Part shown: positions 5,633 through 23,966 of the stretch, piece after piece
Position numbering within the stretch: position 1 is the stretch's first letter
How the letters are laid out: every line of letters starts with the position of its first letter
Assembly (NCBI GenBank): GCA_963698075.1
Contig: OY969116.1
Span: 862,131-926,130, forward strand
Reading direction: 5' to 3'
Source of the DNA: an uncultured Candidatus Berkelbacteria bacterium
GTDB taxonomy: Bacteria > Patescibacteriota > UBA1384 > UBA12157 > JAENIV01
Length of the DNA: 64,000 bases
The notes under the pieces: model-generated
Database searches by the model: none
Told to the model about the DNA's origin: nothing
What the model saw: the letters and a program-made list of their open reading frames with translations, nothing else
Position numbers and translations under genes: made by a program

Positions 5633-5646
5633 CTTTGGGACATTGA

Positions 5647-6486: not shown

Positions 6487-6510
6487 GGAACAACGACTAC
6501 TGACTAACCA

Positions 6511-6545: not shown

Positions 6546-6619
6546 CCATTTTCTCCTGATTCCATCCACGGATGGAGCCAGAAGACGAATGTTGTACCTG
6601 AACAAGGGAGGAAACCCTG

Positions 6620-6763
6620 ATGAACAAGAGATGGTTTCTTTTCGCCGTTATCGTCCTTGCCTGGATCGCTGTGGTTGTTCTGGGAGTCAAGTATGCCCCG
6701 TGGTCGTTTGCCGTCCTCGGCGGCGTCATCATTCTGCTCCTTATCTTGCGGAAGAGGAGGTGA
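6620..6763 (+). CDS. 47-aa hydrophobic membrane peptide (MNKRWFLFAVIVLAWIAVVVLGVKYAPWSFAVLGGVIILLLILRKRR)
   Basis: Below the ORF-track length cut-off. GGGAGG RBS 7 nt upstream. Its TGA stop is embedded in the RBS of the next gene. The overlapping long-frame ORF translates to low-complexity R/P/C-rich sequence. Confidence 0.5.
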   Translation: MNKRWFLFAVIVLAWIAVVVLGVKYAPWSFAVLGGVIILLLILRKRR

Positions 6764-6768
6764 GAGAG

Positions 6769-7413: not shown

Positions 7414-7418
7414 GAGAG

Positions 7419-8254: not shown

Positions 8255-8278
8255 ATCTTAACAACTGAAAATAGATCT

Positions 8279-8317
8279 TGCCCACCATAGCCTTGGGCGA
8301 AGGTGGGCCTTTTCTCC
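8279..8317 (+). terminator. Terminator after the SDR-like gene
   Basis: GCCCACC-atagccttgggcgaa-GGTGGGC followed by CTTTTCTCC. Confidence 0.55.
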
Positions 8318-8377
8318 CGGTTATCACTACGGTGGTAGCTGGAAGCAAAAGAATGTACCTGAACAAAGGAGAAGCCA

Positions 8378-8572
8378 ATGTCGGCTTTTATGGGTGTGAA
8401 GACCAAAGACCGGAAGGGCAGGATCGTCGGGATCACACCGGATGTCGCCGCCGGTATGATATTTCTAGGGCTGGTAACGCCGGTCAGAAAGGTCGTTCAA
8501 CCAACACGCAAGAAGAAGGGGAAGGTTGCCTCGAAGCGCAAATCGGCGAAACGAAAAAAGAAGAGAGGCTGA
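8378..8572 (+). CDS. 64-aa protein with a strongly basic Lys/Arg-rich tail
   Basis: AAGGAGA RBS. Preceded by the same ATGTACCTGAACAAAGGAG module that precedes the 47-aa peptide gene. Confidence 0.45.
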   Translation: MSAFMGVKTKDRKGRIVGITPDVAAGMIFLGLVTPVRKVVQPTRKKKGKVASKRKSAKRKKKRG

Positions 8573-8573
8573 G

Positions 8574-8909
8574 ATGGCCAAGATTCTGCTCTGGAACGTG
8601 CCGGCGGAGTATCGCGAGGCGCTGGAGAAGGAAGCGAGACCGTTCGTGTCGCTGGAGACCCTAGAGATCGATGAAGTTTCTGGTATCAACCAATTTGATA
8701 GCAAAGCCAAAGAGGCGACTGCTTCAGGTAGGCCCTATACTCAGATTGTAGCTTTCTTGACAGAGCCATCCAATGTGAGAGGGGCGCTGGATGTACTCAG
8801 TGAGCGGGCGACAGAAATGCAGGCTGATGTAATCTGTCACACAGCGCTGGTTCCGCTTCCCGACTTCATCGCCGAGTTCAATCGCACCTTCCACCCGTGG
8901 AAGAAGTGA
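8574..8909 (+). CDS. Hypothetical protein (112 aa, MAKILLWNVPAEYREALEKE...)
   Basis: The ATG lies 1 nt after the upstream TGA, giving translational coupling. A terminator follows at 8938-8972. Confidence 0.5.
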   Translation: MAKILLWNVPAEYREALEKEARPFVSLETLEIDEVSGINQFDSKAKEATASGRPYTQIVAFLTEPSNVRGALDVLSERATEMQADVICHTALVPLPDFIAEFNRTFHPWKK

Positions 8910-8937
8910 CATCACATCATCAAGGAGAGGGATCAAT

Positions 8938-8972
8938 GAGGTCCGCCTTTGGTGGACCTCTTCTTTTTCCCT
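8938..8972 (+). terminator. Terminator closing the GC-rich island
   Basis: AGGTCCGCC-tttggt-GGACCT followed by cttctttttcc. Confidence 0.55.
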
Positions 8973-9021
8973 GCAAATCAGCTATATTATAAATAGTATG
9001 GTTGTCAGGGACGGAGGAAAG

Positions 9022-9792
9022 ATGGCAATAGAGTATGATAAGTTTAAAAATCTGGGCCTGGCTGCGGGTTTAAGCGACAATGAAACCAAAATGTATTTGG
9101 CAATTTTGGAAATGGGGCCCTCGGCGATTCAAAAAGTCGCCCAAAAAGTCGGCCTTTCAAGAGTGGCCAGCTACACCATTGCCGAACAACTCATCCAAAA
9201 AGGTTTAGCCAGTTGGTTTAAAAAAGATAAAAAAAGATATGTATCCGTCGAAAATCCTGACTATATTTTAGAACTTATTAAACGTCGCGAGAGCGAACTC
9301 GAAGAAGAAAGAACCAAAATTCGCAAACTTCTGCCTGAACTTAAAACCTATTATCGCTTAGCCGGCAAACGGCCCGAAGTCAGATTTTATGAAGGTGTTG
9401 AAGGGTTAAAGGCGATTTATGAAGATACCTTAAATTCTCAAAAAGACCTTTTAGTTTACTCTGACCTTGCTGCCACTGAACGATTGATTCCGGACATGAA
9501 GTTTTGGAACAATTATGTCAGGCGAAGGGTCAAACTCGGCATCAACGCTAAAGGGATTTGTCCGCGCACCCCGGAAACCGTGGCTTTGGATAAAAAAAGC
9601 CCCCAAGAATTGCGGGAGATTCGTTTCCTGCCAGAGGGCGAAACTTTTGGACCCACCGAACTCTATATTTACGGCGATAAAATTGCCCTGCTTTCGTTCG
9701 AGCGCGAAATCGTCGGTGTCGTCATCGAAAATAGGGAACTAGCCGAAACCCAACGGAAAATCTACACGAGGATGTGGCAGAGCCTTAAGTAA
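9022..9792 (+). CDS. TrmB-family HTH transcriptional regulator
   Basis: The N-terminal wHTH (ETKMYLAILEMGPSAIQKVAQKVGLSRVASYTIAEQLIQKG) is typical of TrmB. GGAGG RBS. Confidence 0.7.
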   Translation: MAIEYDKFKNLGLAAGLSDNETKMYLAILEMGPSAIQKVAQKVGLSRVASYTIAEQLIQKGLASWFKKDKKRYVSVENPDYILELIKRRESELEEERTKIRKLLPELKTYYRLAGKRPEVRFYEGVEGLKAIYEDTLNSQKDLLVYSDLAATERLIPDMKFWNNYVRRRVKLGINAKGICPRTPETVALDKKSPQELREIRFLPEGETFGPTELYIYGDKIALLSFEREIVGVVIENRELAETQRKIYTRMWQSLK

Positions 9793-9875
9793 ACAAACTA
9801 CAACTTAAAGTATAAAGATGATATCATTTAAGTTTTTTCTTGAAGTTTTAACATTTGCGTTTTAAACTTTTAGTT

Positions 9876-10649: not shown

Positions 10650-11517
10650 AAGACTAAATAGAAAAAATTTTCACATAATCAGAAAAGTTCATTATGACCG
10701 GCGAGAGCGATATATTTGTCTAATTCTCAAACGAAATAATCAGAAGTTTTTTTACAAAGAACTAAATAATGATCGGCCGGATAAATTTAAAGAGCAGATT
10801 GATTTTCAAAAAAGAGTAGAAGAAAGCCAAACGGAAATCATTTTACCAAAATTAATAGATTATAAGCTTGGTGCTGAAAAAAGTTGGGCGCTTTGGGAAT
10901 ATTTACCCGGAAAACATTTAGCTGATTGGAAACCTAAAAAGATAAGACAACTGGCCAATTGGCTGGAACCGATTGTTGAGGTTTTAATTCAAATGTTAAA
11001 AATCAAACCCTTGGAGGGAAATTATCATATCTCTGAAATTATGCTCGAGAGAGCCGAAGGGTGGTCAAAAGAACCGGTCCTGCAAGGTTTTTATTCCGAA
11101 TCATTTAAAAATAAAATTATCTTCCTGATTAACAAAAACCATTCCAAACTAATCAATGGTTTTAATCATTCGGATTTTGTTCCTTGGCACATGCACGAAC
11201 TAAAATTTCCCAAATTTTACCTTGTGGATTATGAGAATTGTAAAGGAAAACCTTTGTATTATGATTTAGCCCATTTTTATCACCGGCTCTATACGAAACT
11301 TGGAGAGCCAAAAATTGCTGATAAATTTCTGGAAATCTTTTTTAAAAGAGCAAAATTACCGCCTGATTTTGAAGCGATATTTTCGACAATTTTAGGCCAC
11401 CGAATTATGGCGGGATTTTTTGACTGCCTTGTTAATAAAGATGGAACTGATATTAAATTACATCAAAAACTATTGGATAATTATCTTAAGACTACAAAAA
11501 ATAGAAAGGGAAAATGA
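10642..11517 (+). CDS. Protein-kinase-like fold phosphotransferase (aminoglycoside/choline kinase family)
   Basis: Brenner-like motif HSDFVPWHM ... LVDYEN. Confidence 0.5.
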   Translation: MVKRLNRKNFHIIRKVHYDRRERYICLILKRNNQKFFYKELNNDRPDKFKEQIDFQKRVEESQTEIILPKLIDYKLGAEKSWALWEYLPGKHLADWKPKKIRQLANWLEPIVEVLIQMLKIKPLEGNYHISEIMLERAEGWSKEPVLQGFYSESFKNKIIFLINKNHSKLINGFNHSDFVPWHMHELKFPKFYLVDYENCKGKPLYYDLAHFYHRLYTKLGEPKIADKFLEIFFKRAKLPPDFEAIFSTILGHRIMAGFFDCLVNKDGTDIKLHQKLLDNYLKTTKNRKGK

Positions 11518-11693
11518 AGAAATCATTTCATCATGGACCTTCAAGTGCGGTGTACGGGCTCGGATTTATCGGCGCGGCAATTTGGTTTATCAGCCAAGCG
11601 CACGGTTTTTGGCCGATCGTTTTAGCAATTTTGAAAGCCATCGTCTGGCCAGCATTTTTGGTCTACCAGGCCTTCCAATTTTTGGCAAAATAG
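11514..11693 (+). CDS. 59-aa small membrane protein (MKKSFHHGPSSAVYGLGFIGAAIWFISQAHGFWPIVLAILKAIVWPAFLVYQAFQFLAK)
   Basis: ATGA overlap with the upstream gene. Two predicted transmembrane helices. Below the ORF-track cut-off. The 117-aa track ORF in another frame is not protein-like. Confidence 0.45.
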   Translation: MKKSFHHGPSSAVYGLGFIGAAIWFISQAHGFWPIVLAILKAIVWPAFLVYQAFQFLAK

Positions 11694-11696: not shown

Positions 11697-11730
11697 CAGC
11701 CGATTTGACCCCCGGCGATTTGGGGGGGGG
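11697..11730 (+). repeat. Copy 1 of the AGCCGATTTGAC-family motif (cagccgatttgacccccggcgatttggggggggg)
   Basis: Begins 4 nt after a TAG stop. Contains the hairpin CCCCC-ggcgattt-GGGGG. Confidence 0.6.
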
Positions 11731-11786
11731 CGTGGTCTGCCGGCGGCAATTGGCCCAGAATTTGGTTTCCTAAGCATTAAACAAAC

Positions 11787-11809
11787 GCCACCTGCGATAT
11801 GCGGGTGGC
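11787..11809 (-). terminator. Terminator for the minus-strand zinc-ribbon gene
   Basis: GCCACCTGC-gatat-GCGGGTGGC. Confidence 0.5.
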
Positions 11810-11834
11810 AAGACGAAATGAAAAGTTGGATCTT

Positions 11835-12227
11835 CTACAGGCTATGGGTGTGGGTTCTGACCGTGAAGTAATGGCAACGCGGACATTTGTGGTGGGTGAA
11901 ATGCCGGCCATAACCAGGTTCCTCAGCCACTTGTTCCATAGGAATAAGACATTTGGGACATAACGCAGCATTCGAATGATCTTCCAGAATGCCACACTCC
12001 AAACATCTAACCTGGAACCGGTGCGGACCCGACGGTACAAACAGAGGAGCGGTGATGAGCTTTTTTTCCTCATCAGACCATACCAACCAACCCAAGAATT
12101 CCCACCGATGTTCACAGACCATCGTCTCCTCAGCAACAGTCATCCAGGGTTCTCCCTTTTTCTTGTGGATATCAGTCCAATTAAATATTACTCCAAATCC
12201 AGATAAAATCAACTCAAAAGAGGCCAA
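11835..12227 (-). CDS. Small zinc-ribbon protein, GC-rich (three CxxC pairs: CLECG...CPKC...CPRC)
   Basis: 130-aa ORF with a TTG start; the alternative internal ATG gives 11835..12143. Cys spacing is typical of zinc ribbons. GC is about 50% against a 38% background. Confidence 0.45.
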   Translation of the reverse strand: MASFELILSGFGVIFNWTDIHKKKGEPWMTVAEETMVCEHRWEFLGWLVWSDEEKKLITAPLFVPSGPHRFQVRCLECGILEDHSNAALCPKCLIPMEQVAEEPGYGRHFTHHKCPRCHYFTVRTHTHSL

Positions 12228-12237
12228 TTTAAAAGCT

Positions 12238-12270
12238 ATTCTATTATTCTATAGAATATGCGAATATCAT
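12238..12270 (+). repeat. Palindromic element copy 1: ATTCTATTATTCTATAGAATATGCGAATATCAT
   Basis: Contains the perfect 14-bp palindrome TATTCTATAGAATA. An identical 28-nt core occurs at 23934. Confidence 0.7.
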
Positions 12271-12318
12271 TTAAAAATCATATTACATTCCCTCAAAAAA
12301 ATCACCCAGGTAATATTA

Positions 12319-13260
12319 TTAATTCTTCCTAATTGTAAACTTCCCAGTTTTAGAACGAGAAACCACACCTTTTTTATGATGAAAACTCTCAATTTTTTCC
12401 GCGTCAAAATGTTTATGGATTTGCGGTTCGAGGTCTTGGATTTTCGCGCAGGCCTCTAAATAATCACAAATCATATTATCAATTTCAATTTCTTTTTGAT
12501 TTTTGCCTTTAGGCATGCTATTTGATTTTTGATTTTGAAACTTCTGTTTCATCAAGGGACAGAGATGCGCGTACTCACAATAATCGCATAAAAAATTATG
12601 TTTTGGCCGCCACTCGTTTTCTTTTTCAATTTTCTCGGCAGTTTTGACTATTTCTTCTTTGATTTGCTCGACTTCATCCGGTCTTCTTTTGGTTGTCATT
12701 TGTGAATCGTGTTTTAAATAATATAAAGTCAGGCGAATCTCTTTGGCTTCGGGCCATAAGTTTTCCACTGCCAAATGATAAATGCAAAGTTGTTTATCGC
12801 GATTAACATCATCTTGAGAAGGTAACTGTTTACTGGTTTTATAATCGATGACTTCAAAAGCACCAATGGGCAGTTTATCGACGCGATCAATCATTCCCGA
12901 TAAAGTATGCTCGCCCACGGGAATTTGAAAGCGTTTTTCGGTTGAGACAATATTTCGCAAGCCGGGTTTGTGACCAGCATGAAATTTATCGAGCATTTGT
13001 TTTCCCCAATCAAAATATTGTTTGGCTTGAGCGGGATTTTTAAAAACCTCGTCGCGCCAGTTGTTTTTGAGATATTCTAAAAGCTCCTCCCGAGGCGGCA
13101 TAATTGGGTCTTTTTTTAAAGCATATTGAACCACTTCGTGAATTAAAGAACCAAAAAAAAGCTCGGGCTTTTCGGGAACCTTAATCCGATCAATGTATTG
13201 GAATTTATATTTGGCCGGACAACGATTAAAAGTTACTAAAGCCGAATAGGAAATGCGCAT
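12319..13260 (-). CDS. Cas4/RecB-family PD-(D/E)XK nuclease with a 4-Cys Fe-S cluster signature
   Basis: N-terminal Cys (RCPAKYKF), motif II EVIDYK, motif III QLCIY, and the C-terminal motif C-x2-C-x5-C (CDYCEYAHLC). No CRISPR array or cas genes are nearby. Confidence 0.7.
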   Translation of the reverse strand: MRISYSALVTFNRCPAKYKFQYIDRIKVPEKPELFFGSLIHEVVQYALKKDPIMPPREELLEYLKNNWRDEVFKNPAQAKQYFDWGKQMLDKFHAGHKPGLRNIVSTEKRFQIPVGEHTLSGMIDRVDKLPIGAFEVIDYKTSKQLPSQDDVNRDKQLCIYHLAVENLWPEAKEIRLTLYYLKHDSQMTTKRRPDEVEQIKEEIVKTAEKIEKENEWRPKHNFLCDYCEYAHLCPLMKQKFQNQKSNSMPKGKNQKEIEIDNMICDYLEACAKIQDLEPQIHKHFDAEKIESFHHKKGVVSRSKTGKFTIRKN

Positions 13261-13350
13261 GAGTTTATTCTATCCTTAAAACTCGTCCTTAGCAAGAAAA
13301 TGTGCTAAAATAAAAAATGGATTTCGGGTTCAATCCATTTAAATAAAAGT

Positions 13351-13854
13351 ATGAAAAATTGGTTGTGGGTGACTTTAATTATTGCTCTTTTTCTCGTCGG
13401 TTTAGCTGGCGGCATCATTTATTGGTCTCTCGTTAAGACAAAAAATATCGCCAACTCCGCTTTAGACGCCGCTAAAAATGCCGAGAGTGTGACGACTCCC
13501 ACGCCTTCTCCTTCGATTTCTACAATACCGGTAGCACTGAATATGCCCTCTGCCGACGTTGCCGGCGAAGATCTCGCCGATGTCCCACGTTACAGCGGTT
13601 CGATGAGGACGGGCTACGATAAAAATGATGATGGCACCGAGATTAACCTCGAATACATTACCTCTTCCAGTACCAAAGAAATTCTCGATTTTTATAAAAA
13701 AACCCTGGTTGACAATGGTTGGACACTTTTTGCCGAAGGCTCCCAAAATTTAAATTTTTCGAAAAGTCAGACTGATGTCTCGATTGAAATCATTGAGGCA
13801 AACAACAATCTTATCCAATATCGTATTCATTCTTTTCGAACTCAAGGGGAATAA
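13351..13854 (+). CDS. Membrane-anchored hypothetical protein with a Ser/Pro/Thr linker
   Basis: N-terminal transmembrane helix followed by a soluble domain. Confidence 0.5.
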   Translation: MKNWLWVTLIIALFLVGLAGGIIYWSLVKTKNIANSALDAAKNAESVTTPTPSPSISTIPVALNMPSADVAGEDLADVPRYSGSMRTGYDKNDDGTEINLEYITSSSTKEILDFYKKTLVDNGWTLFAEGSQNLNFSKSQTDVSIEIIEANNNLIQYRIHSFRTQGE

Positions 13855-13917
13855 ATCTTTTTGCGGGACTTGACAAAACTCTATATATAATCTAATATAT
13901 ATTTAGAAAGGACGATT

Positions 13918-14112
13918 ATGAATAAAAATATTAATGTCTATAATTTACAGGCCAATATTTCCAAGGTTTTGAAAGAAACCGAAAAAGGCGCTGTTTATGA
14001 GGTAAATCGTTATTCAAAACCAGTGGCGGTTTTGATCTCTTACAAAAATTACCTCAAGCTCAAAGGCGAGTGCAAACATTGTATTGAAGATTTAAGGAAA
14101 TTGGTTAAATGA
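13918..14112 (+). CDS. Phd/YefM-like antitoxin-fold protein (64 aa)
   Basis: Matches the Phd/YefM N-terminal pattern NxSKVLxxxEKGxxxEVxRxSKPVAVLIS. Its stop overlaps the iscS start (ATGA). Confidence 0.5.
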   Translation: MNKNINVYNLQANISKVLKETEKGAVYEVNRYSKPVAVLISYKNYLKLKGECKHCIEDLRKLVK

Positions 14113-15290
14113 AAGTATATTTGGACTATGCGGCGACATCGCCGGACAAAAAAGAGGTGTTTCTGGCAATGACGCCATATTTTAAAGAATATTTTGGTAA
14201 CCCTTCGAGCATTCATGCCTGGGGACAGACGGCGCGGAAAGCCATCGATGAATCTAGGGCGACCATTGCTAAATTTTTAAATTGCCAGAGTGAAGAGATA
14301 ATTTTTACCGGCAGCGGCTCGGAGGCGGATAATTTGGCAATCACCGGGCTTATAGATGGCCTCGGGGTAAAAATTAAACCCCATATCATTACCAGCGCCT
14401 TCGAACATCATGCTGTTCTCAAAACCTGCGAGGATTTGAAGAAAAAAGGATTGGCTGAAGTGACCTACATTCGGCCAAATAAAGAGGGGATTATTGAAGC
14501 CGCTACAGTCAAAAAAGCCATCAAGCCAAATACGGTTTTGGTTTCGATTATGTATGTTAACAACGAAATCGGCACCATCCAGCCGATTCGCGAAATCGGC
14601 AAAATGATCGAGAAAAAGAATCACGACCGCCAGCAAAAGATTTATTTCCATACTGATGCCGTTCAAGCCGCCGAATATTTGCCAATGGACGTCGATTATT
14701 TACACGTTGATTTGCTTACCATCGCTGGTCACAAGATTGGCACGCCGAAAGGTGTTGGTTTGCTTTATATCCGCAAAGGCACGCCGCTTACTTCCATTAT
14801 TCATGGCGGCGAACAAGAAAAGGGCCTACGCGCCGGCACGGAAAATGTGCCATATATAATTGGTATGGCTACCGCCATCCAATTAATTAAAAATTTAAAA
14901 TTTAAAATTAAAAATTTAGAGAAACTAAGAGATTATTTTATCAAGCGCATCATAAAAGAAATTCCCGAAGTCTATCTCAATGGTTCTGAAACCCTCCGCG
15001 CCCCCCATATTGTTAATTTTTATTTTAAAAATATTGAAGGCGAATCGATTGTCTTGGGAATGGATCTGGAAGGGGTCGCTTGTTCAACCGGCTCGGCTTG
15101 CACTTCACAAAGCTTAGAGCCCTCCCACGTTATCATGGCAATTTTCAATGATCATTTCAGAGCCGCCGGTTCAGTGAGATTCTCTTTTTCAAAACTGACC
15201 ACCAAAAAAGATTTAGATTTTGCGATTACTAAACTTAAAAAAGTTGTCGCCCACTTAAGAAAAATTAGCCCATACGGAAAGAGAGGTTAA
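14109..15290 (+). CDS. iscS: Cysteine desulfurase (class V aminotransferase, IscS/NifS)
   Basis: PLP-lysine region (TIAGHKIGTPKG) and the catalytic Cys loop SSGSACTS. Confidence 0.9.
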   Translation: MKVYLDYAATSPDKKEVFLAMTPYFKEYFGNPSSIHAWGQTARKAIDESRATIAKFLNCQSEEIIFTGSGSEADNLAITGLIDGLGVKIKPHIITSAFEHHAVLKTCEDLKKKGLAEVTYIRPNKEGIIEAATVKKAIKPNTVLVSIMYVNNEIGTIQPIREIGKMIEKKNHDRQQKIYFHTDAVQAAEYLPMDVDYLHVDLLTIAGHKIGTPKGVGLLYIRKGTPLTSIIHGGEQEKGLRAGTENVPYIIGMATAIQLIKNLKFKIKNLEKLRDYFIKRIIKEIPEVYLNGSETLRAPHIVNFYFKNIEGESIVLGMDLEGVACSTGSACTSQSLEPSHVIMAIFNDHFRAAGSVRFSFSKLTTKKDLDFAITKLKKVVAHLRKISPYGKRG

Positions 15291-15291
15291 G

Positions 15292-15756
15292 ATGGCGATC
15301 GAAAAGTTGTATAGCCAAAAAGTCATGGAGCATTTCTTACATCCGCGAAATATGGGAGTGATAAAAAATCCTTCCGGCATTGGTCGGGTTGGTAATCCCG
15401 TTTGCGGCGACGTGATGGAGCTTTATATAAAAGTTAAAAGTCAAAAGGCAAAAGGCAAAAATAAAAACATTAACAATGAGGATAATGCTATTATCACTGA
15501 TGTCAAATTTAAAACCTTTGGTTGCGGGGCAGCGATTGCCAGTTCTTCGATGATGACGGAAATGATTAAGGGCAAAACTCTTAAGGAAGCGCTAAAAGTA
15601 ACTAACTCGGCGGTGGCTGATGCCTTGGGCGGTCTGCCGCCAATCAAAAGGCACTGCTCGGTTTTAGCCAAAGAAGCACTCGAAAAAGCCCTGGCCGATT
15701 GGCTCGCCTCGCGGCGAAGCGGGCAAAAAAATTTGTCCAAGAACAATCGCCATTAA
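15292..15756 (+). CDS. iscU: Fe-S cluster assembly scaffold IscU/NifU-like
   Basis: NPVCGD, TFGCGAAIASS and HCS motifs. Confidence 0.85.
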   Translation: MAIEKLYSQKVMEHFLHPRNMGVIKNPSGIGRVGNPVCGDVMELYIKVKSQKAKGKNKNINNEDNAIITDVKFKTFGCGAAIASSSMMTEMIKGKTLKEALKVTNSAVADALGGLPPIKRHCSVLAKEALEKALADWLASRRSGQKNLSKNNRH

Positions 15757-15789
15757 AAAAAGATTGTGCTATTATGAAAGAAAGGATGA

Positions 15790-16749
15790 TTGATGATCAC
15801 CTGGATCGATATTTTAATCATTGTCGTGATTATTTTTTATGCCCTTGATGGCTATCGTCAGGGTTTTTGGAAAATTATCCTCGACATTTTGACAGTGATT
15901 ATCTCTTTGGTTATCGCTTTGAAATTCTATCCTTTAGCCGGAAATCTTTTTGTTGCCTGGGGCCTCGATATCAATCTTGCCCGGCCAGTTGGCTTTTTTG
16001 TCCTCTGGACCGTGACTCAAATAATTTTTTATCTTTTGGCCATTCTAATTTTTCATTATTTCCCCAAATATTCTGAAGGGAGAAAAACGGGGAAGATTTT
16101 GGGAATTTTCCCGGGAATCATTAAAGGTTTAATGATCGTTGCCATTTTCTTGATTATTTTAATCACCCTGCCTTTCGCGACCTCATTTAAAAATACTTTA
16201 TCGAAATCTCTCATTGCTGGTCCTTTAATCAAATCGACCGCCAGAATTGAAGGTCAAATGGCCAAAATATTTGGTCAATTAAATAATTCCTTTACATTTT
16301 TAACCGTTGCTCCCGGAAATGAAGAAGAAATTACCCGGTTAAATTTCCAAACCAATGACTTTAACATTGATTCCACAGGTGAGGAGATGTTGGTTTCTTT
16401 AGTCAATAACGAAAGACAAAAAGCGGGTCTGGCACCATTGACCACGGATCTATTACTCAGAAACGTCGCTCGTGCGCACTCAATGGATATGCTCCGGAAC
16501 GGTTATTTTGCTCACAAAAGTCTCTCTGGCGAAACGCCGTATGATCGCCTGACCGCTGCCAATGCTAATTTTCGCCTGGTAGGCGAAAATTTGGCCTTAG
16601 CGCCATCGATTGATTTGGCCCACATCGGCCTGATGAACTCTCCTTCTCATCGAGAAAATATTTTGGATCCTGACTACAAACGGATTGGTATCGGGGTGAT
16701 TGATGCCGATCCTTATGGTAAAATGATTACTCAAATTTTTACTGACTAG
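15790..16749 (+). CDS. Fusion of a CvpA-family membrane domain with a C-terminal CAP/SCP (PR-1-like) domain
   Basis: The N-terminal four transmembrane helices are CvpA-like. The C-terminal HSMDM...GYFAHKS...GENLA...MNSPSHRENIL motifs match the CAP domain. Confidence 0.6.
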   Translation: MMITWIDILIIVVIIFYALDGYRQGFWKIILDILTVIISLVIALKFYPLAGNLFVAWGLDINLARPVGFFVLWTVTQIIFYLLAILIFHYFPKYSEGRKTGKILGIFPGIIKGLMIVAIFLIILITLPFATSFKNTLSKSLIAGPLIKSTARIEGQMAKIFGQLNNSFTFLTVAPGNEEEITRLNFQTNDFNIDSTGEEMLVSLVNNERQKAGLAPLTTDLLLRNVARAHSMDMLRNGYFAHKSLSGETPYDRLTAANANFRLVGENLALAPSIDLAHIGLMNSPSHRENILDPDYKRIGIGVIDADPYGKMITQIFTD

Positions 16750-16758
16750 AAAGCGGTA

Positions 16759-17553
16759 ATGATTTTAAAAGGCAAACCAATAGCCGAAAAAATCTATGCC
16801 AGGTTAGTTAAGGATATTGCTTTGCTTAAACAAAAAAATCTTATCCCGACTTTAGCAGTTATCTTAGCAGGTGAAGATCCAGCTAGTTTGACTTACGTGC
16901 GCGCCAAAGAAAAAAGGGCAAGGATTCTGGGAATAAATTTTAAACTTTTTCATCTCACGGGGATTGCCCCCGAAAGTAAAATTTCCGAGCTAATTGGTGA
17001 CCTTAATAAAAATAAAAATGTCTGCGGCATTGTTCTGCAATTGCCATTGCCAGAAGGATTGGACACTGATAAAATTTTAAGAGCAATTTCGCCTGAAAAA
17101 GATATTGATGGTTTTTCGGGAAAATATCCAGCGCCAACACCATCGGCAATTTTGGAAATTTTTAAATATTATGATATTGGCCTCCAAGATAAAAAAATTG
17201 TTATCGTGGGTTTTGGTCGTTTGGTGGGCAAACCTCTTGAAAAACTAATGCGTAAGCTGAATATTCAGCTAATAATTTGTACTTCAAGTAGTGACATCGC
17301 CTCCGAAACCCTTGACGCCGATATAATTATTTCCGCCACCGGCATTCCGAGTTTAATTAAGCCGGAAATGGTTTCTGAAAAAGCGGTCGTCATTGACGCT
17401 GGCACCGCCGAAAGTCTAGGCGAAATCCGCGGCGATGTCGACCCAAAAGTTTATGAAAAAGTTCTCGCCTACTCTCCCGTCCCTGGCGGCGTCGGCCCAG
17501 TGACAGTGGCGTGTTTGATGAAGAATCTCATTGAAGCGGCCAAAAAAGCTTAA
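16759..17553 (+). CDS. folD: Bifunctional methylene-THF dehydrogenase/cyclohydrolase
   Basis: Canonical FolD layout, with KxKxxxxGI, SxxYxxxK-like and PGGVGP motifs. Confidence 0.9.
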   Translation: MILKGKPIAEKIYARLVKDIALLKQKNLIPTLAVILAGEDPASLTYVRAKEKRARILGINFKLFHLTGIAPESKISELIGDLNKNKNVCGIVLQLPLPEGLDTDKILRAISPEKDIDGFSGKYPAPTPSAILEIFKYYDIGLQDKKIVIVGFGRLVGKPLEKLMRKLNIQLIICTSSSDIASETLDADIIISATGIPSLIKPEMVSEKAVVIDAGTAESLGEIRGDVDPKVYEKVLAYSPVPGGVGPVTVACLMKNLIEAAKKA

Positions 17554-17555
17554 TT

Positions 17556-18062
17556 ATGAAAGATTTAGTTGTCCAAGAAGTAATTGAACAGAAAATTTAT
17601 TTAATCAGAAGCCAAAAAGTAATGATGGATCGCGATTTGGCGGTTCTTTATGGCGTACCGACCAAAAGATTGAATGAAGCGGTTAAAAGAAATCAGAAGA
17701 GATTTCCCTCGGATTTCGCATTTTTACTGACATGGAAAGAAACAACAGGTTTAAGGTCGCAAATTGCGACCTTAAAGAATAAAGAGCATGCAAAATACCG
17801 ACCTTACGTTTTTACGGAACAAGGTGTAGCCATGTTATCCAGTGTTCTAAATAGCGAGCGCGCCATCCAAGTTAATATTCAAATCATTCGGACCTTTATT
17901 AAACTGCGCAAACTTTTAGCCACACATGCGGATCTATTAAAGAAAATTGAAGCAATGGAACGCGGCTACGACCGGCAGTTCCGCATCGTTTTTGAAATCT
18001 TAGAAGAACTACGCGAATCATCTAAAAAACAAATCAAAAAAATCGGCTTTAAGTTAAAATAA
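17556..18062 (+). CDS. ORF6N-domain protein (phage anti-repressor-like)
   Basis: IRSQKVMMDRDLAVLYGVPTKRLNEAVKRNQKRFPSDFAF is the ORF6N signature. Confidence 0.65.
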   Translation: MKDLVVQEVIEQKIYLIRSQKVMMDRDLAVLYGVPTKRLNEAVKRNQKRFPSDFAFLLTWKETTGLRSQIATLKNKEHAKYRPYVFTEQGVAMLSSVLNSERAIQVNIQIIRTFIKLRKLLATHADLLKKIEAMERGYDRQFRIVFEILEELRESSKKQIKKIGFKLK

Positions 18063-18071
18063 AGGAGAAAA

Positions 18072-18521
18072 ATGGCATTAATTTATGAAACAGAAAACTT
18101 TATTGTTGAGGCCGCTGACAAGCCGCATGTGACAAGAACTGATGGCGGACATATTCGAATTCTTCCAAAAAAAGAAGTTGTGGACCGGACTGAACTAAGT
18201 CCAGAAAAAGCCAAAGAATTGATGCGGTTGACAATGATTGTCGGCGAAGCAATGGCGCAGGGCTTGAATAATCGCGGTGTCAATATTGGGCGGATTAATT
18301 ATCAAGACATGGGAAATTGGACGCCAACATTTCATATCCAAATTTATGGCCGTGCCAAAGATGCGAAAATTCAAAAATTCGGCGATGCAGTTCAGCTGCC
18401 TCAGCGCGATACCGGCTTCTACGATAATTTTGAACCGCTCAACGTTGGCGATATCGCCGAAATCCGAAAATTGATTGAAGAAATTTCAAAAAGGGATAAA
18501 TATAATTTAAAAAACTGGTAG
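18072..18521 (+). CDS. HIT-like (histidine-triad superfamily) protein with a variant triad
   Basis: HIT-fold pattern with HIQIYGR in place of HxHxH. Confidence 0.4.
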   Translation: MALIYETENFIVEAADKPHVTRTDGGHIRILPKKEVVDRTELSPEKAKELMRLTMIVGEAMAQGLNNRGVNIGRINYQDMGNWTPTFHIQIYGRAKDAKIQKFGDAVQLPQRDTGFYDNFEPLNVGDIAEIRKLIEEISKRDKYNLKNW

Positions 18522-18538
18522 CCGATTTGACACCCCGC
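18519..18538 (+). repeat. Copy 2 of the AGCCGATTTGAC-family motif (TAGccgatttgacaccccgc)
   Basis: Fused to the TAG stop of the upstream gene. 22 nt upstream of the next ATG. Confidence 0.6.
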
Positions 18539-18553
18539 TTGCGAGGGAAAATT

Positions 18554-18988
18554 ATGGATCTGATTAGTATTAAAAAAATCACAAGTTCAAAAGAATTAAA
18601 AGATGCTTTTAAAATTCGCCACAAAGTTTTTGTAATCGAACAAAAAGTCGATCCAGCTTTAGAGATTGATGGTTTAGATGAAGAATGTGATCAGTTTTTG
18701 GTATATTATGAGAGCCGGCCGATTGGTACCGCTCGGGTGAGATATCTCGATAGTAATGAAGCGAAAATAGAAAGAATGGCCATTCTGAAAGAATTTCGGG
18801 GCAAAAATATCGGGAGCGAGCTCTTAAAATTTATTATGGGTTATCTTAAAAATAAAAGAATTAAAACAGCAGTTTTAAATGCACAAATTCATGCAAAGAA
18901 ATTTTATGGAAAATTCGGTTTTAAAGGGGAGGATGCTGTTTTTAAAGAAGCCGGTATCGATCATGTAGAAATGAAGAAGGATTTATGA
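18554..18988 (+). CDS. GNAT-family N-acetyltransferase
   Basis: Acetyl-CoA-binding motif RGKNIGSELL. The track start at 18527 is a TTG inside the repeat motif, so the ATG at 18554 is preferred. Confidence 0.7.
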   Translation: MDLISIKKITSSKELKDAFKIRHKVFVIEQKVDPALEIDGLDEECDQFLVYYESRPIGTARVRYLDSNEAKIERMAILKEFRGKNIGSELLKFIMGYLKNKRIKTAVLNAQIHAKKFYGKFGFKGEDAVFKEAGIDHVEMKKDL

Positions 18989-19590
18989 AACTATATTTAA
19001 CTTCAGTGGCATCACAATCACTTGATAAAATTGTGCAAGAACTGCCTCAAAAGCCGGCGGAGCTTAAAGTTCTTTTTATTCCCACCGCGGCCGATACTTA
19101 TGCAAAAGACAATCGGCCGTGGTTTGATGCTGACCGCGATAAATTTATTGAACTTGGATTTAAGCTTGAAGATTTTGATTTGAAAGGGAAATCCGAAGAC
19201 GAAGTCCGCGCGGCTCTATCGAAAACCGACATCATTTTCGTCTCCGGCGGGAACACTTTTTATTTACTTGAACATGTCAAAAAAAGTGGCTTTGATAAAG
19301 TTTTGAGGGAGCTAAAAGATAGCGATAAAATCTACATTGGTTCGAGTGCCGGTTCAATCATTCTTGGCCCGAATATCGAACCGATCAAATCCTTCGACGA
19401 TCCCTCCGCCGCCAAATTGGATAATTATGACGGCATCGGTCTTGTTGACTTCGTCGTTCTGCCCCATTGGGGCAAAGAAAAATACGCCGCAAGGCAAGAA
19501 AAAGTCATCAAAGAATTTGATAAAAAATATAAACTCAAGCCAATTAAAGATGGGGAGATGATAACGGTTCAGGTCTTGAGGCGTTATTAA
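18985..19590 (+). CDS. pepE: Peptidase S51 (dipeptidase E-like; class I glutamine amidotransferase fold)
   Basis: IIFVSGGNTFYLL ... IGSSAGSII matches the S51 catalytic Ser region. Confidence 0.7.
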   Translation: MKLYLTSVASQSLDKIVQELPQKPAELKVLFIPTAADTYAKDNRPWFDADRDKFIELGFKLEDFDLKGKSEDEVRAALSKTDIIFVSGGNTFYLLEHVKKSGFDKVLRELKDSDKIYIGSSAGSIILGPNIEPIKSFDDPSAAKLDNYDGIGLVDFVVLPHWGKEKYAARQEKVIKEFDKKYKLKPIKDGEMITVQVLRRY

Positions 19591-19599
19591 GGAGTAAAA

Positions 19600-19944
19600 A
19601 TGTTAGAACAAGAAAAAGGAATGCCTTCTAGGGAAGAAATCATAGCTGAGATTAGGCGTCAGCTAAGTGTTGGAGGTTTATTAGGAAAACATGAAATTGC
19701 CGAGCAAGTTGAGGCAATTGATTGGGCGGGTCGTACGGAGTTGGAAAGACAAAAAACATTTTATCAAAGTAAAATTACTGCGACGGAGAAAAATCTCTCT
19801 TCAGAACCCAAGGGTCCAGCTATGAGGGAAATGGAGCGAGCTGGATCGAGACGAATTGGACATTATGAGAGAATGGTGTCTTTGTTGGATCAACTGATTA
19901 CCTTGACTCCCGAAGAGGAAGAGTCTAAAGCCGATCTAAGATAG
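19600..19944 (+). CDS. Hypothetical protein (114 aa)
   Basis: AGGAG RBS. No recognisable domain. Confidence 0.45.
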   Translation: MLEQEKGMPSREEIIAEIRRQLSVGGLLGKHEIAEQVEAIDWAGRTELERQKTFYQSKITATEKNLSSEPKGPAMREMERAGSRRIGHYERMVSLLDQLITLTPEEEESKADLR

Positions 19945-19954
19945 GGAGATGGTC

Positions 19955-19978
19955 AACACCTCAACGGGGTGAGGTGTT
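19955..19978 (+). repeat. 24-nt hairpin element AACACCTCAACGGGGTGAGGTGTT (copy 1)
   Basis: A 9-bp stem that acts as an intergenic terminator. The reverse complement occurs at 23897. Confidence 0.6.
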
Positions 19979-19990
19979 AGGGAGGAGAAA

Positions 19991-20218
19991 ATGAAAAGAA
20001 TATTGATTATCTTGGGAATTATTATTTTGGCTGGCATGCTTTATTTTGCCGGTAAATATACTTACTATTATATTCAGGTTAAACAAATCAATACTTTTGA
20101 TGCTTGTGTCAAAGCCGGATATAAAATTACAATATATCCGAACGGAACAGACCCTTCGAAATGCACTTTGCCCGACGGCCGCGAACTTTTTGATAAAGTT
20201 TATGGGCCGGATAATTAA
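19991..20218 (+). CDS. Small membrane-anchored protein (75 aa)
   Basis: GGGAGGAG RBS and an N-terminal transmembrane helix. Confidence 0.45.
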   Translation: MKRILIILGIIILAGMLYFAGKYTYYYIQVKQINTFDACVKAGYKITIYPNGTDPSKCTLPDGRELFDKVYGPDN

Positions 20219-20221
20219 ATC

Positions 20222-20243
20222 TAGCCGATTTGACAGCGGGGAC
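20222..20243 (+). repeat. Copy 3 of the AGCCGATTTGAC-family motif (TAGccgatttgacagcggggac)
   Basis: Starts 3 nt after the upstream TAA stop. About 90 nt upstream of a GC-rich gene. Confidence 0.6.
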
Positions 20244-20324
20244 TATAAATGGGCTTGCTCTGCAGGCCATTTTATGGTATAACAACATCAGCCCGAAAGG
20301 GGAGTCAACAAGGAGGATAAACCG

Positions 20325-20819
20325 ATGAAGGTCGGGAAGATCATCTGGGATGTCGTGAAGGTCGTCTTGATGGTCGCTGTCGTGGTACTCGTTGTCTGGT
20401 TCTATCTTGGGGTACACCACAGCATGGTTGAGCAAGCTGCTTTCATGGCGAAAGCCAAGGCAAGCCAGACCATGATGCCTCGCGAACACATCTACATCGA
20501 TCCTCATCAGGTAGTGAAGATCCGCGAGATGCCGCTCGGTAGCCGTGGCTGGGCAATCGCTGAAGCGATTGTTGTTGGCAAAGGGGGTCGGTGTCTTCTT
20601 GACCTTGATGAATACGTAGAACTCAAGGTTAAGCCGGACCGCCCGGCGGTGGAACTCCGTTACCGAAAAGACGGCTTCTACGAGGCGACCGTTCTCGACA
20701 GTAGTATCAGTTGGGAACCGAAGGACGTAACCGGGTCCGAACATGAGAGCGATAGGAGCCTCTGCTATTTCCCACTCCGCGTCAGCTTCGCTGACAGCCA
20801 GAAGGCTGACGCGCGATGA
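20325..20819 (+). CDS. GC-rich (about 58%) membrane-anchored hypothetical protein
   Basis: AAGGAGG RBS and an N-terminal transmembrane helix. Bracketed by motif copies 3 and 4 and by the perfect palindromic terminator GGGCGGCGGCACGTGCCGCCGCCC (20838-20861). Confidence 0.5.
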   Translation: MKVGKIIWDVVKVVLMVAVVVLVVWFYLGVHHSMVEQAAFMAKAKASQTMMPREHIYIDPHQVVKIREMPLGSRGWAIAEAIVVGKGGRCLLDLDEYVELKVKPDRPAVELRYRKDGFYEATVLDSSISWEPKDVTGSEHESDRSLCYFPLRVSFADSQKADAR

Positions 20820-20894
20820 GCGCTCGTGACTTCACGTGGGCGGCGGCACGTGCCGCCGCCCACCAAACTTTACTTAAAATTATTAAAATATTTC

Positions 20895-20916
20895 AGCCGA
20901 TTTGACAGCGGGGATA
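20895..20916 (+). repeat. Copy 4 of the AGCCGATTTGAC-family motif (agccgatttgacagcggggat)
   Basis: Copies 3 and 4 share a roughly 30-nt match that extends into an A/T-rich tail. Confidence 0.6.
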
Positions 20917-20957
20917 ATTAAATAATCCACGAGGGTAGGGCGTTTGCGAGGAGAAAA

Positions 20958-21506
20958 ATGAAGCAGGAAATTGATCAAATCAAACAAGGCCATACTGAAA
21001 TTCAAAAAGCGATAAAATATCTAGTTGATTCATGTTTGGATGAAAATGGGATATCGAAAATTGCTAATCCCAAGCCGGTTGTCCTGCATTCAATAAGAGT
21101 CGGGATGATTTTGTTAAATTACAATTATTCAAAAGAAATTGTAATAGCGGGGATCTTACATGACGTGATTGAGGATGCAGAAATTTCAAAAGAAAAAATC
21201 GCTGAAAAATTTGGGAATAAAATCGCGGCGATTGTTTGGGTGGTTTCGCACGATGCAAATATCGCCGATGACCAATTGAGAACAAAGACTTTGCACTCAA
21301 ATATGAAAGAAGCTGGAAAAGATACGGTGATTGTTTCCATCGCCGATCATATTGATAATTTTCCGTATTTAATATATGCCAAAGATGACGAAGAGCGCGA
21401 ATGGGTTCGTACAAAATGGCTTAAATTTTTCGATGAAGTTGCGTTATTGGCAAAAGACGAGCCAATTTATGAAGAGCTAAAAGAACAAATTGAGAAAATT
21501 AGATAG
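20958..21506 (+). CDS. Stand-alone HD-domain small alarmone ((p)ppGpp) hydrolase, RelA/SpoT N-terminal hydrolase-like
   Basis: HSIRVGMIL ... AGILHDVIED ... FG..IAAIV..VSH matches the RelA/SpoT HD hydrolase pattern. There is no synthetase domain. Confidence 0.6.
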   Translation: MKQEIDQIKQGHTEIQKAIKYLVDSCLDENGISKIANPKPVVLHSIRVGMILLNYNYSKEIVIAGILHDVIEDAEISKEKIAEKFGNKIAAIVWVVSHDANIADDQLRTKTLHSNMKEAGKDTVIVSIADHIDNFPYLIYAKDDEEREWVRTKWLKFFDEVALLAKDEPIYEELKEQIEKIR

Positions 21507-21530
21507 CCGATTTGACACCCGGCGATTAAA
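21504..21530 (+). repeat. Copy 5 of the AGCCGATTTGAC-family motif (TAGccgatttgacacccggcgattaaa)
   Basis: Fused to the TAG stop of the hydrolase gene. 26 nt upstream of the next ATG. Confidence 0.6.
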
Positions 21531-21543
21531 TGAAAGGAGAAAA

Positions 21544-21789
21544 ATGACGACCATATGGGTTATCTTAGGAATCATATCGTTGGTACTTTTGACGATATAC
21601 TGGAAAAATAGAAATGCAGTTTGGGGCGGGTTAACTGCTGGAATAATCATTGCATTAATAATAGCGTTAGTATTTCTGTTTAAAGGTAATGGATTTAATT
21701 GGTACGTTTTAATTAAAGGCGCAATTATCGGAACAATTGCAGGAGTGCTCGCTGAGTTATTAGGCGTGTTAGGTAAAAAAAATAAATAA
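21544..21789 (+). CDS. Small membrane protein (82 aa, two to three transmembrane helices)
   Basis: AGGAGA RBS. The ATG at 21544 is preferred over the track start at 21490. Confidence 0.5.
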   Translation: MTTIWVILGIISLVLLTIYWKNRNAVWGGLTAGIIIALIIALVFLFKGNGFNWYVLIKGAIIGTIAGVLAELLGVLGKKNK

Positions 21790-23577: not shown

Positions 23578-23898
23578 ATGATTTACATAATTATTGCTCT
23601 TATCGTTGGTTTTGGGCTCGGGTGGTTTTTGAAACCGAGAGAGAGCCGCCCCAGTGAGATACAAAAAAATCTCACGGGGCAAGGATTTATCAGCGAATCG
23701 GTGGAGAAGAAAGAGGAGAATTTAGCAAAAGCAAGAGTATACATTAAAGGCAAGGAAAAGATCACCAATGATGAGCTTCAAAAAGCCCTTGGCGTTTCCG
23801 ACGCAACAATTGTTAGATATTTAGACGAACTCGAAAAAGAAGGTCTCATTAAACAGGTCGGCAAAACCGGCAAGTATACTTACTACGAAGTTCTCTAA
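23578..23898 (+). CDS. Membrane-anchored winged-HTH protein (DeoR/MarR-like HTH at the C-terminus)
   Basis: N-terminal transmembrane helix. ITNDELQKALGVSDATIVRYLDELEKEGLIKQ is a classic wHTH. Confidence 0.55.
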   Translation: MIYIIIALIVGFGLGWFLKPRESRPSEIQKNLTGQGFISESVEKKEENLAKARVYIKGKEKITNDELQKALGVSDATIVRYLDELEKEGLIKQVGKTGKYTYYEVL

Positions 23899-23920
23899 CA
23901 CCTCATCCCGTTGAGGTGTT
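23897..23920 (+). repeat. 24-nt hairpin element copy 2 (AACACCTCATCCCGTTGAGGTGTT), in inverted orientation relative to copy 1
   Basis: Its reverse complement differs from copy 1 by one nucleotide. Confidence 0.6.
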
Positions 23921-23933
23921 AAATCTAGACGAT

Positions 23934-23966
23934 ATTCTATTATTCTATAGAATATGCGAATGTCAT
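23934..23966 (+). repeat. Palindromic element copy 2: ATTCTATTATTCTATAGAATATGCGAATGTCAT
   Basis: 28/28-nt identity with copy 1 at 12238, then one mismatch, then TCAT. Confidence 0.7.

Follow-up and report, generated by a model that had tools for sequence, protein, structure and literature searches.

What does a short sequence do that recurs five times within 10 kb of a bacterial chromosome, always on the same strand and always at a gene junction? The question is raised by a 64-kb stretch of DNA from a 929-kb contig (henceforth the window, by which we mean the whole stretch analyzed), and the short sequence, which we call the motif, is the subject of this analysis. The window is part of the chromosome of a bacterium of the Patescibacteria, or Candidate Phyla Radiation (CPR): it codes for FolD, IscS/NifU, LigA, UvrABC, GatAB, S2/Ts/RRF, glycolytic enzymes and an FeFe hydrogenase, its proteins occur on the 929-kb contig, and the named homologs of its HIT protein are mostly labeled Patescibacteria or Parcubacteria. 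A phage origin was considered and set aside, as a megablast search of the 11-23 kb region against phage records returned no match. Genomes in this group are tiny and streamlined, and little is understood of the way in which accessory genes enter them and are reshuffled.

We find that the motif is a real, non-random, lineage-restricted repeat that can be matched to no described family; the initial annotation of this DNA had likewise recognized no known element in it. Its copies mark joints where units (an HD gene with its motif, a GC-rich cassette between two motifs, and a motif with an 81-amino-acid (aa) gene) were gained, lost or exchanged, one boundary lying inside the motif. Our preferred reading, a tentative one to which we give a rough probability of 0.42, is that the motif is a clade-specific junction module analogous to promoter-early stem-loop (PeSL) cassettes, and that its copies would act as short homology anchors in the shuffling of accessory genes.

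A lineage-restricted repeat at the ends of genes

The 12-mer AGCCGATTTGAC occurs without mismatch five times in the window, at 11698, 18520, 20223, 20895 and 21505, and each time on the plus strand, so the five co-oriented copies first annotated are confirmed by exact count. Allowing up to one mismatch in an 11-mer raises the number to nine matches against 1.5 expected, a figure reached by none of 100 shuffled sequences; the exact 11-mer has one chance match in about 1.35 Mb of DNA from 80 unrelated loci. The five copies are as follows:

c1, 11697..11732, plus strand: cAGCCGATTTGACCCCCGGCGATTTGGGG, beginning 4 nucleotides (nt) past the TAG stop of a gene for a 59-aa membrane protein (11514-11693)
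c2, 18519..18553, plus strand: the HIT gene (18072-18521) ends in the TAG of the motif, which serves as its stop codon
c3, 20222..20243, plus strand: tAGCCGATTTGACAGCGGGGAC, beginning 4 nt past the TAA of a 75-aa gene, with a GC-rich cassette directly after it
c4, 20894..20923, plus strand: cAGCCGATTTGACAGCGGGGATAATTAAAT, its first 20 nt the same as in c3
c5, 21504..21543, plus strand: the HD gene likewise ends in the TAG of the motif as its stop codon, and the 3' half ACACCCGGCGATTAAATGAAAGGAG leads to an ATG at 21544

The span common to all five is just 12-13 nt rather than the 20-30 nt originally reported, and longer identity holds between pairs: c3 and c4 are identical over exactly 20 nt (AGCCGATTTGACAGCGGGGA), not some 30, and c1 and c5 agree at 22 of 23 positions (shared sequence AGCCGATTTGACMCCCGGCGATT). 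Only c2 and c5 start at the TAG stop of the upstream gene, where three copies had been credited with doing so. The copy said to lie 3 nt past a TAA is c3, which does follow such a stop, at a distance of 4 nt and with its own TAG in frame with it (TAA ATC TAG). c4 lies about 76 nt past a TGA, behind a terminator hairpin. The range of 22-90 nt given for the distance to the downstream start holds for c2 to c5 if measured from the TTGACA hexamer; c1 lacks a co-oriented downstream gene and faces a convergent GC-rich gene on the minus strand (11835-12143) with a terminator of its own. The 3' half of c2, GAGGGAAAATT, leads straight into the Shine-Dalgarno sequence (SD) and ATG of a GNAT gene (18554). 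We also observed a TAG followed by GGAGATGGTC after the 114-aa gene (19942-19954), which is like the 3' half of the motif with the 5' core missing, and which recurs before a hairpin in the relative L104; it may be a decayed or truncated copy.

Contigs of relatives, all uncultured and metagenomic, were recovered via homologs of the HIT, HD and 75-aa proteins. They fall into four sets, rel1 (contigs L092 and L082), rel2 (L085 and L099), rel3 (L096) and rel4 (L102), and the fragments L093, L094 and L104, and the motif is found in every one of them. This gives a set of 22 clear copies, five from the window and 17 from relatives, in seven related genomes, plus one split copy (L082 2155). Their alignment defines a full element (T)AGCCGATTTGACA-SCSGGSGATTGG(T)GGGGAAA of about 26-35 nt. 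Its core, CCGATTTGA(C), is 10-11 nt long and invariant in about 19 of the 22 copies. The second part of the motif is a weaker direct repeat of the first, the two half-sites being GCCGATTTG and GGCGATTGG at a spacing of 15 nt, with GSGATTGG as the consensus of the second half-site 15 nt downstream of the core. Two main subtypes of this second part, ACACCCGGCGATT and ACAGCGGGSGATT, can be told apart, and several genomes have both.

The placement of the copies is as regular as their sequence. The upstream open reading frame (ORF) is co-oriented with the motif in all 22 cases and the downstream gene in 19. In 15 of the 22 copies the upstream stop codon ends between -7 and +1 nt from the first base of the motif, whose own TAG serves as that stop in seven of them, while the distance from the motif to the next ATG ranges from 25 to 157 nt. 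This proximity to the stop codon, together with the variable distance to the ATG, indicates an element anchored at the 3' end of the gene before it and not at the start of the one after it. Four copies at 68-91 nt from the stop come after terminator-like hairpins, three of them preceded by GC-rich cassettes (c4, L082 9508 and L102 15062). In the compact copies, the G-rich end of the motif (GGGGAAA) lies 5-12 nt ahead of the ATG and is likely to be the SD. Motif-bearing junctions in the window are 32-138 nt long, as against -8 to +11 nt between core genes, and co-oriented arrays of the motif are formed by c2 to c5 in the window and by the copies at 13062-15062 of L102 in rel4.

About 44 kb of the window (0-4 kb and 24-64 kb) is taken up by core genes, among them S2-Ts-RRF, uvrABC, the glycolysis genes and ligA; these hold no copy at all, and neither do the core genes in about 95 kb of the relatives. 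Over this span, the motif does not behave as the general promoter of the organism or the promoter consensus of its core genes, which was the outcome that the initial annotation had named as refuting its view. A scan of metagenomes with a strict 23-nt pattern matched five stretches, two from a contig already recovered and three new, and for copies that fit this pattern the family appears small and clade-restricted. No motif is present on a more distant CPR contig or on the DPANN-like archaeal contigs that carry HIT or HD homologs; on viral contigs the 23-nt pattern has zero matches and an 18-nt pattern two chance matches inside GC-rich phage coding sequence. A FolD search of the GTDB representative genomes, used as a negative control, gave matches at 33-42% identity only. 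Homologs 68-72% identical to the window HIT protein (18072-18521) are encoded on contigs L088 and L107-L110, whose gene content (NurA, Hjc, PTH2, RFC, Pelota) is archaeal and DPANN-like, which suggests that the HIT gene was recently shared between CPR bacteria and DPANN archaea.

Synteny breaks and exchanged units

The genomes rel1 to rel4 share a backbone of genes for Nramp, EamA, TatD, a PD-(D/E)XK nuclease (on the minus strand), IscS, NifU, CvpA, FolD and (ORF6N), followed by MnmA, CtpB, L9 and LigA, with a nucleotide identity among these genomes of 66-76%. Between the backbone blocks lie hot spots whose content differs from genome to genome, and which draw on one small pool of genes in varying order: HIT, NUDIX, HD, HAD, GNAT, peptidase S51, His-phosphatase, small membrane proteins, a small winged helix-turn-helix (wHTH) protein and GC-rich orphan cassettes. 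The main hot spot extends from folD/ORF6N to mnmA and a second one adjoins the PD-(D/E)XK nuclease gene. Hence, the locus presents defined hot spots in which a small gene pool is reshuffled between close relatives, with a specific short sequence at the joins. The accessory features of the window that bear on this are:

11777..12270, minus strand: GC-rich cassette with a zinc-ribbon-like 102-aa ORF (11835-12143), a terminator (11777-11800) and a promoter region with repeat D2
12319-13260: PD-(D/E)XK nuclease gene
17556-18062: ORF6N gene, encoded beside the array
18554..20218, plus strand: accessory unit from c2 to c3, with GNAT, peptidase S51, a 114-aa ORF and a 75-aa membrane ORF (Pfam)
20244..20893, plus strand: GC-rich moron-like cassette made up of a promoter TTGCTC-17-TATAAC (20255-20283), an ORF, a terminator hairpin (20836-20863) and an AT-rich tail
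20949..21506, plus strand: HD-domain gene (HD_4, Pfam) with SD, an exchanged unit together with c5
21544..21789, plus strand: 81-aa membrane ORF, not in rel3
23578-23898: small wHTH gene at the far end of the window array, conserved at array ends

Comparison with five syntenic relatives places each of the five window copies at a synteny break, and the units that are bounded by the motif have been exchanged, which bears out the idea, raised at the outset, of a sequence that marks cassette junctions. The HIT homology block between the window and rel1 stops at 18530, inside the motif; after the HIT stop there is a GNAT gene in the window versus a HAD gene in rel1, and the motif is retained in both, the rel1 copy being a degenerate ortholog of c2 (L082 10449). 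The HD homology block stops at 21527 against rel3 and at 21515 against rel2, the 3' homology block of the GC cassette at 20912, and that of the 59-aa gene at 11692. For the HD gene together with its 3' motif, nucleotide identity to rel3 is 94%, where the backbone is mostly about 74% identical (one 1.4-kb block reaches 83%), and identity to rel2 is 83%, against 66% for the backbone. These values, well above those of the backbone, imply that this unit was exchanged recently; its left boundary is in the hairpin/SD region and its right one in the motif. The 81-aa gene is an indel relative to rel3, with its left edge inside the motif and its right edge just before TTTCTTGGCGCTTC, an unrelated sequence.

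The motif tends to be retained by the upstream gene, in three of three genomes for HD, two of three for HIT, and two or possibly three of three for the 75-aa gene. The HD stop is followed by the motif in all three HD-bearing genomes with differing 3' halves, and more generally the 3'-half subtypes differ between copies at orthologous sites. c1 has an orthologous copy in rel2 (L085 10743), after a homologous small gene, and c3 a degenerate one after the 75-aa gene in rel4 (L102 10191) and possibly also in L104, where it is heavily diverged; a further decayed orthologous copy is at L099 10546. Conversely, the order of motif, GNAT and S51 recurs in rel4 (L102 13062) with a different upstream gene.

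A two-sided unit is the GC-rich cassette at 20244-20893, which is flanked by the 20-nt identical copies c3 and c4, as the initial annotation had seen. Its ORF (20325-20819) codes for 164 aa without a family match and has 55% GC as against 33-42% in the neighboring genes. A cassette at another site in rel1 shares its first 57 nt at 98% identity and its last 80 nt at 89%, in comparison with about 72% for the backbone, and yet the two ORFs are unrelated. The same layout of motif, cassette and motif is found in rel4, where the copies at L102 14666 and 15062 surround a 66-aa GC-rich ORF. Other cassettes have the motif at one end only, as it is missing on the left of the rel1 GC cassette and on the right of that in L093. 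The 12-mer GGATAATTAAAT at the 3' end of the 75-aa gene (20209..20220, plus strand) has an exact repeat at 20912-20923, and these two sole exact occurrences in 64 kb flank the segment from c3 to c4. This repeat was considered as a target-site duplication and rejected: one of its copies is simply where the 75-aa gene natively ends, the other shares bases with the motif's own 3' half, and it could be fitted to no transposition model.

Further small GC-rich cassettes were observed at L082 1100-1540 and 9003-9507, L096 150-560, L102 14700-15020 and L093 1-600. Taken together with the two of the window, these cassettes have 50-55% GC where the genome has 43% overall and the neighboring genes 33-42%, and each combines its own sigma-70-like promoter and a GC-hairpin terminator with an unrelated orphan ORF of 66-164 aa. 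Their ORFs have no Pfam match and nothing significant in a search of PHROGs, and the GC-cassette promoter pattern has no match on the viral contigs scanned. On a larger scale, a GC-rich island of 5.6 kb (4225-9800, 53.5% GC) lies between EamA and TatD, which adjoin each other in rel1, rel2 and rel4; most of its ORFs are without a family match, and it also contains a fragment of a short-chain dehydrogenase gene and one for a regulator of the TrmB type. In rel1, some 340 nt of non-coding DNA (L082 11170-11513), which follow a motif copy and a TTGACT-17-TAATAT promoter and precede a 59-aa ORF, have no significant Rfam match and could be a non-coding RNA or a long leader.

A second family of repeats accompanies the motif, namely palindromic hairpins of the form AACRCCTCA-N4-6-TGAGGYGTT with the compensatory variants ACGCC/GGCGT and ACGGC/GCCGT. 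Two copies lie in the window:

19955..19978: palindromic junction hairpin AACACCTCA-ACGGGG-TGAGGTGTT, directly 5' of the SD of the 75-aa gene
23897..23920: second copy, at the far end of the array and following the small wHTH gene (23578-23898)

Many more occur in L082, L092, L096, L099, L102, L093 and L104, usually right before the SD of an accessory gene. Exchanged units often have such a hairpin as their second boundary, as HD does on its 5' side in rel2 and rel3, and the split motif copy of rel1 (L082 2155) is interrupted by a related one.

Two other repeats of the window deserve mention in their own right. A 45-nt direct repeat (12226-12270 and 23922-23966, 89% identical) contains the palindrome TTCTATAGAA, accompanied by TAGAAT on both strands. 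It lies once upstream of the minus-strand GC-rich gene and once after the hairpin at the far end of the array, and could serve as a common operator or promoter. The other repeat, a structured element some 75 nt long, has three copies, two in tandem between uvrB and uvrA (48643-48722 and 48761-48838) and one cut by the end of the window (63948-64000). The hairpins that it forms are long and imperfect, with z = -3.8 in one and -3.2 in another, and their apical stems differ between copies by compensatory changes (UUGAAC/GUUCAA versus CAGAAC/GUUCUG). It has no Rfam family match and may be an undescribed non-coding RNA or an element like the repetitive extragenic palindromes (REPs).

Weighing the roles of the motif

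Under our preferred reading, the identical short copies of the motif would serve as portable homology anchors. DNA taken up or already in the cell would recombine at a motif copy, and its other end would be joined either illegitimately or through another short repeat, such as the AACRCCTCA hairpin or an SD. A circle of motif plus cassette recombining with a chromosomal copy would yield the c3-cassette-c4 structure with its identical 20-nt repeats, and the one-sided events (the 81-aa gene and the rel1 cassette) would look like homology-anchored illegitimate recombination. Such recombination is plausible in naturally competent CPR cells. The asymmetric core of 10-11 nt and the repeated half-site further suggest a DNA-binding protein; with less assurance, we propose that the core and the second half-site are probably kept by selection as the binding site of a sequence-specific protein of this kind. 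The most plausible reader of the motif would be a factor controlling expression of the downstream unit, for which the ORF6N or small wHTH proteins, with genes next to the arrays, are candidates; the motif would then be an operator, a site for an activator, or part of a promoter of non-canonical type.

Several observations weigh against this reading. For recombination that depends on RecA, a span of 13-35 nt is very short. The motif is absent from about half of the breakpoints of the window array, and as breakpoints in a compact genome fall only in a few intergenic spacers, part of the association between motif and breakpoint is expected for any intergenic element. The decay of some orthologous copies (L082 10449, L102 10191, L099 10546 and L104) implies that not all are under selection, and two or three copies lack a gene downstream that they could regulate. 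Within the source genome, the distribution of the motif was surveyed over the 64-kb window of the 929-kb contig. Finally, the tests for sigma-70 and sigma-28 promoters fail.

These tests can be summarized as follows. TTGACA, the -35 element of sigma-70 promoters, is exact in four of the five window copies (c1 has TTGACC). However, a -10 hexamer at 16-18 nt is missing in nearly all copies, with just c2 having a weak AATTAT at 17 nt; in others this position holds, for example, ATCCAC, GCTTGC, AGGAGA or AAATTG, and hexamers resembling TATAAT, if any, are 19-21 nt away. Moreover, in eight of the 22 copies the ATG is only 25-44 nt from the motif start, so that a -10 element would overlap the SD or the ATG and TTGACA cannot be a -35 element. 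Hence, the motif is not a self-sufficient sigma-70 promoter, and on this point, that it is no standard -35/-10 promoter, the initial annotation was right. Canonical promoters are instead found downstream of the motif in several long junctions: TTGACT-17-TAATAT in L082, TTGATC-16-TGgTAGAAT in L102 and TTGCTC-17-TATAAC after c3. Likewise, GCCGAT in the motif equals the first six bases of the sigma-28 -10 element GCCGATAA, which the motif continues with TT instead of AA, but the spacers from TAAA to GCCGAT are flat over 4-35 nt in the 22 copies and the upstream columns are informative only for A/T richness. Inspection by eye and counting brought up no partner element at a consistent distance for sigma-B-like, extracytoplasmic-function-like or phage single-subunit RNA polymerase promoters.

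These results bear directly on the possibility that the motif is purely a cis-regulatory DNA site—an operator, activator site or alternative-sigma promoter defining a regulon of "housecleaning" genes (HIT, NUDIX, HD, HAD, GNAT, S51)—and that its place at breakpoints is a by-product of its intergenic position. We consider this unlikely, even though it has the most to recommend it among the alternatives: the motif is co-oriented with the downstream gene in 19 of 22 cases, the downstream genes are alike in function, the perfect TTGACA and the partial sigma-28 match invite it, as do half-sites 15 nt apart, c4 is the sole conserved element between the strong terminator of the cassette and the HD gene, and a small wHTH gene is conserved at array ends. 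Besides the missing -10 at 17±1 nt, the eight copies too near the SD or ATG, the lack of TAAA at a fixed upstream distance and the good sigma-70 promoters downstream of several copies, what speaks against it is that a change of downstream gene leaves the motif in place behind the upstream one (in three of three genomes for HD, in two of three for HIT), and that c1 and the copy at L082 2155 face convergent genes. Much the same placement would suit an intercistronic or leader element acting in the RNA, be it a processing site, the site of a translational regulator, or a standby or SD-enhancing leader that couples stop to start. All 22 copies are on the strand of the upstream ORF and 19 are co-oriented with the downstream gene, the motif runs from the stop codon to the SD-like GGGGAAA, 5-12 nt before the ATG, in compact copies, and in the operon contexts of c2 and c5 it must be transcribed. 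Yet no conserved secondary structure emerges: the folding z-scores of the motif range from -1.0 to +1.0 and are not significant, there is no covariation, a potential hairpin GCCG-N10-CGGC pairs in 65% of cells, no better than in shuffled or slid controls, and Rfam returns no match at the gathering threshold in the window and nothing meaningful at E<=5 around the copies. Conservation is best in the 5' core, far from the SD, and copies after terminators (c4, L082 9508, L102 15062) or upstream of a separate promoter fall outside the relevant mRNA, all of which makes an RNA-level role quite improbable.

The layout of the copies could also point to a dedicated site-specific recombination site, an analog of integron attC/attI at which an unlinked recombinase moves a gene and its 3' motif as circles. 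The anchoring to stop codons and the co-oriented arrays are as in attC (15 of 22 copies are within 7 nt of the stop of the ORF they follow), 20-nt identical copies surround a single-gene cassette in the window and a like layout exists in rel4, the HD-motif unit moves between genomes, and hairpins and cassettes are repeatedly found in or beside the motif. Nevertheless, we regard such a site as distinctly unlikely, and the initial annotation, which had offered it as one option, is not supported here: inverted repeats and the R''/R' boxes are lacking, as is GTTRRRY, and single-strand folding is not significant; homology stops at motif positions 11, 18 and 23, which leaves no fixed crossover point; and the boundaries are one-ended in the rel1 GC cassette and the rel3 HD unit, where the left motif is absent, and in the L093 GC cassette, where the right one is. 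No integrase or recombinase domain was found among the window ORFs scanned over the 64 kb. Of equally low probability in our estimation is a variant in which an undescribed CPR gene-cassette system, with an unlinked, unrecognized recombinase or nuclease acting on an asymmetric site of about 25 nt at cassette stops, would build the folD-mnmA arrays with their small membrane and "housecleaning" genes. The least probable of the explanations considered is that of a functionless selfish or neutral miniature repeat spread by duplication and gene conversion. It would account for the pattern of birth and decay, with identical copies within a genome and decayed ones at orthologous positions, and for subtypes common to several genomes whatever the neighboring genes; to this extent the earlier suggestion of a small mobile repeat stands. 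However, it leaves the strict sense orientation and the anchoring to stop codons unexplained, an element of 25-35 nt without terminal repeats or a hairpin has no known means of self-mobility, and the core is invariant in about 19 of 22 copies despite a backbone identity of 66-76%. The motif also differs from miniature inverted-repeat transposable elements and REP-type repeats in having neither dyad symmetry nor terminal inverted repeats, with 22 of 22 copies sense-oriented, and from DNA uptake sequences or uptake signal sequences, which occur about once per kb including core genes, in that its five copies in 64 kb all lie within 10 kb and none in the core.

Likeness to known repeat systems

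A literature search for the motif sequence yielded unrelated papers only, on zebrafish skin and an oyster herpesvirus, and one on junction repeats or integrons of the CPR found no paper. If the motif is truly a recombination anchor or a recombinase site, it would provide a sequence handle for mobile cassettes in uncultured CPR genomes and perhaps a landing pad for genetic tools; if it is regulatory instead, it would define one of the first lineage-specific regulons in the CPR.

Three known systems invite comparison at the level of organization, and a fourth at that of sequence. In integrons, including homogeneous chromosomal arrays such as those of the Vibrio cholerae repeats, attC sites directly follow the stop of the cassette ORF in co-oriented, lineage-specific arrays of small accessory genes. 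The motif is likewise lineage-specific and placed after stop codons in co-oriented arrays, but it lacks the imperfect R''/L''-L'/R' palindrome and the GTTRRRY core, is 25-35 nt long as against 57-141 nt for attC, has imprecise boundaries, and comes without an IntI in the window. In naturally transformable neisseriae, minimal mobile elements place accessory genes at fixed hot spots between conserved genes, from where they are exchanged by recombination using those conserved flanking genes as homology, and dRS3 repeats are inverted repeats and targets of phage integration. The minimal mobile elements and the arrays of dRS3 and neisserial intergenic mosaic elements (NIMEs) resemble our locus in their hot-spot accessory genes, exchange by recombination and short conserved junction repeats, with no match to the motif in sequence or architecture. 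With the -10 element of sigma-28 (FliA/SigD) and the -35 element of sigma-70, the motif shares GCCGAT and TTGACA exactly; unlike these promoters it has no TAAA at N15 and no TAnnnT at N17, and its conservation extends well past either hexamer.

The closest parallel is with the PeSL cassettes of T4-type phages, whose copies recombine with one another, a process that reshuffles ORFs and gives rise to mini-circles (Arbiol et al. 2010, PMC2839356; Comeau et al. 2014, PMC4122927). In both systems a short, conserved sequence is repeated where small, non-essential ORFs adjoin, oriented like the genes and concentrated in the hyperplastic stretches that separate conserved blocks, and in both it marks the boundaries of insertions, deletions and replacements between related genomes, the motif copies lying in hypervariable regions at the edges of indels and replacements between close relatives. 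Direct copies surround single ORFs, as seen with c3/c4 and with L102 14666/15062, which is consistent with excision or integration as circles, and a stem-loop partner is often adjacent. The motif differs in being on a CPR bacterial chromosome rather than in a phage, in having no sequence similarity to PeSLs, and in being shorter and anchored to the upstream stop. It also has neither a demonstrable sigma-70 promoter nor a terminator stem-loop of its own; a separate hairpin family sometimes lies next to it, and mini-circles would here be a prediction. In an organism group that to our knowledge has no prior description of such an element, the motif behaves as a regulatory or junction cassette would, which in general terms is a kind already known.

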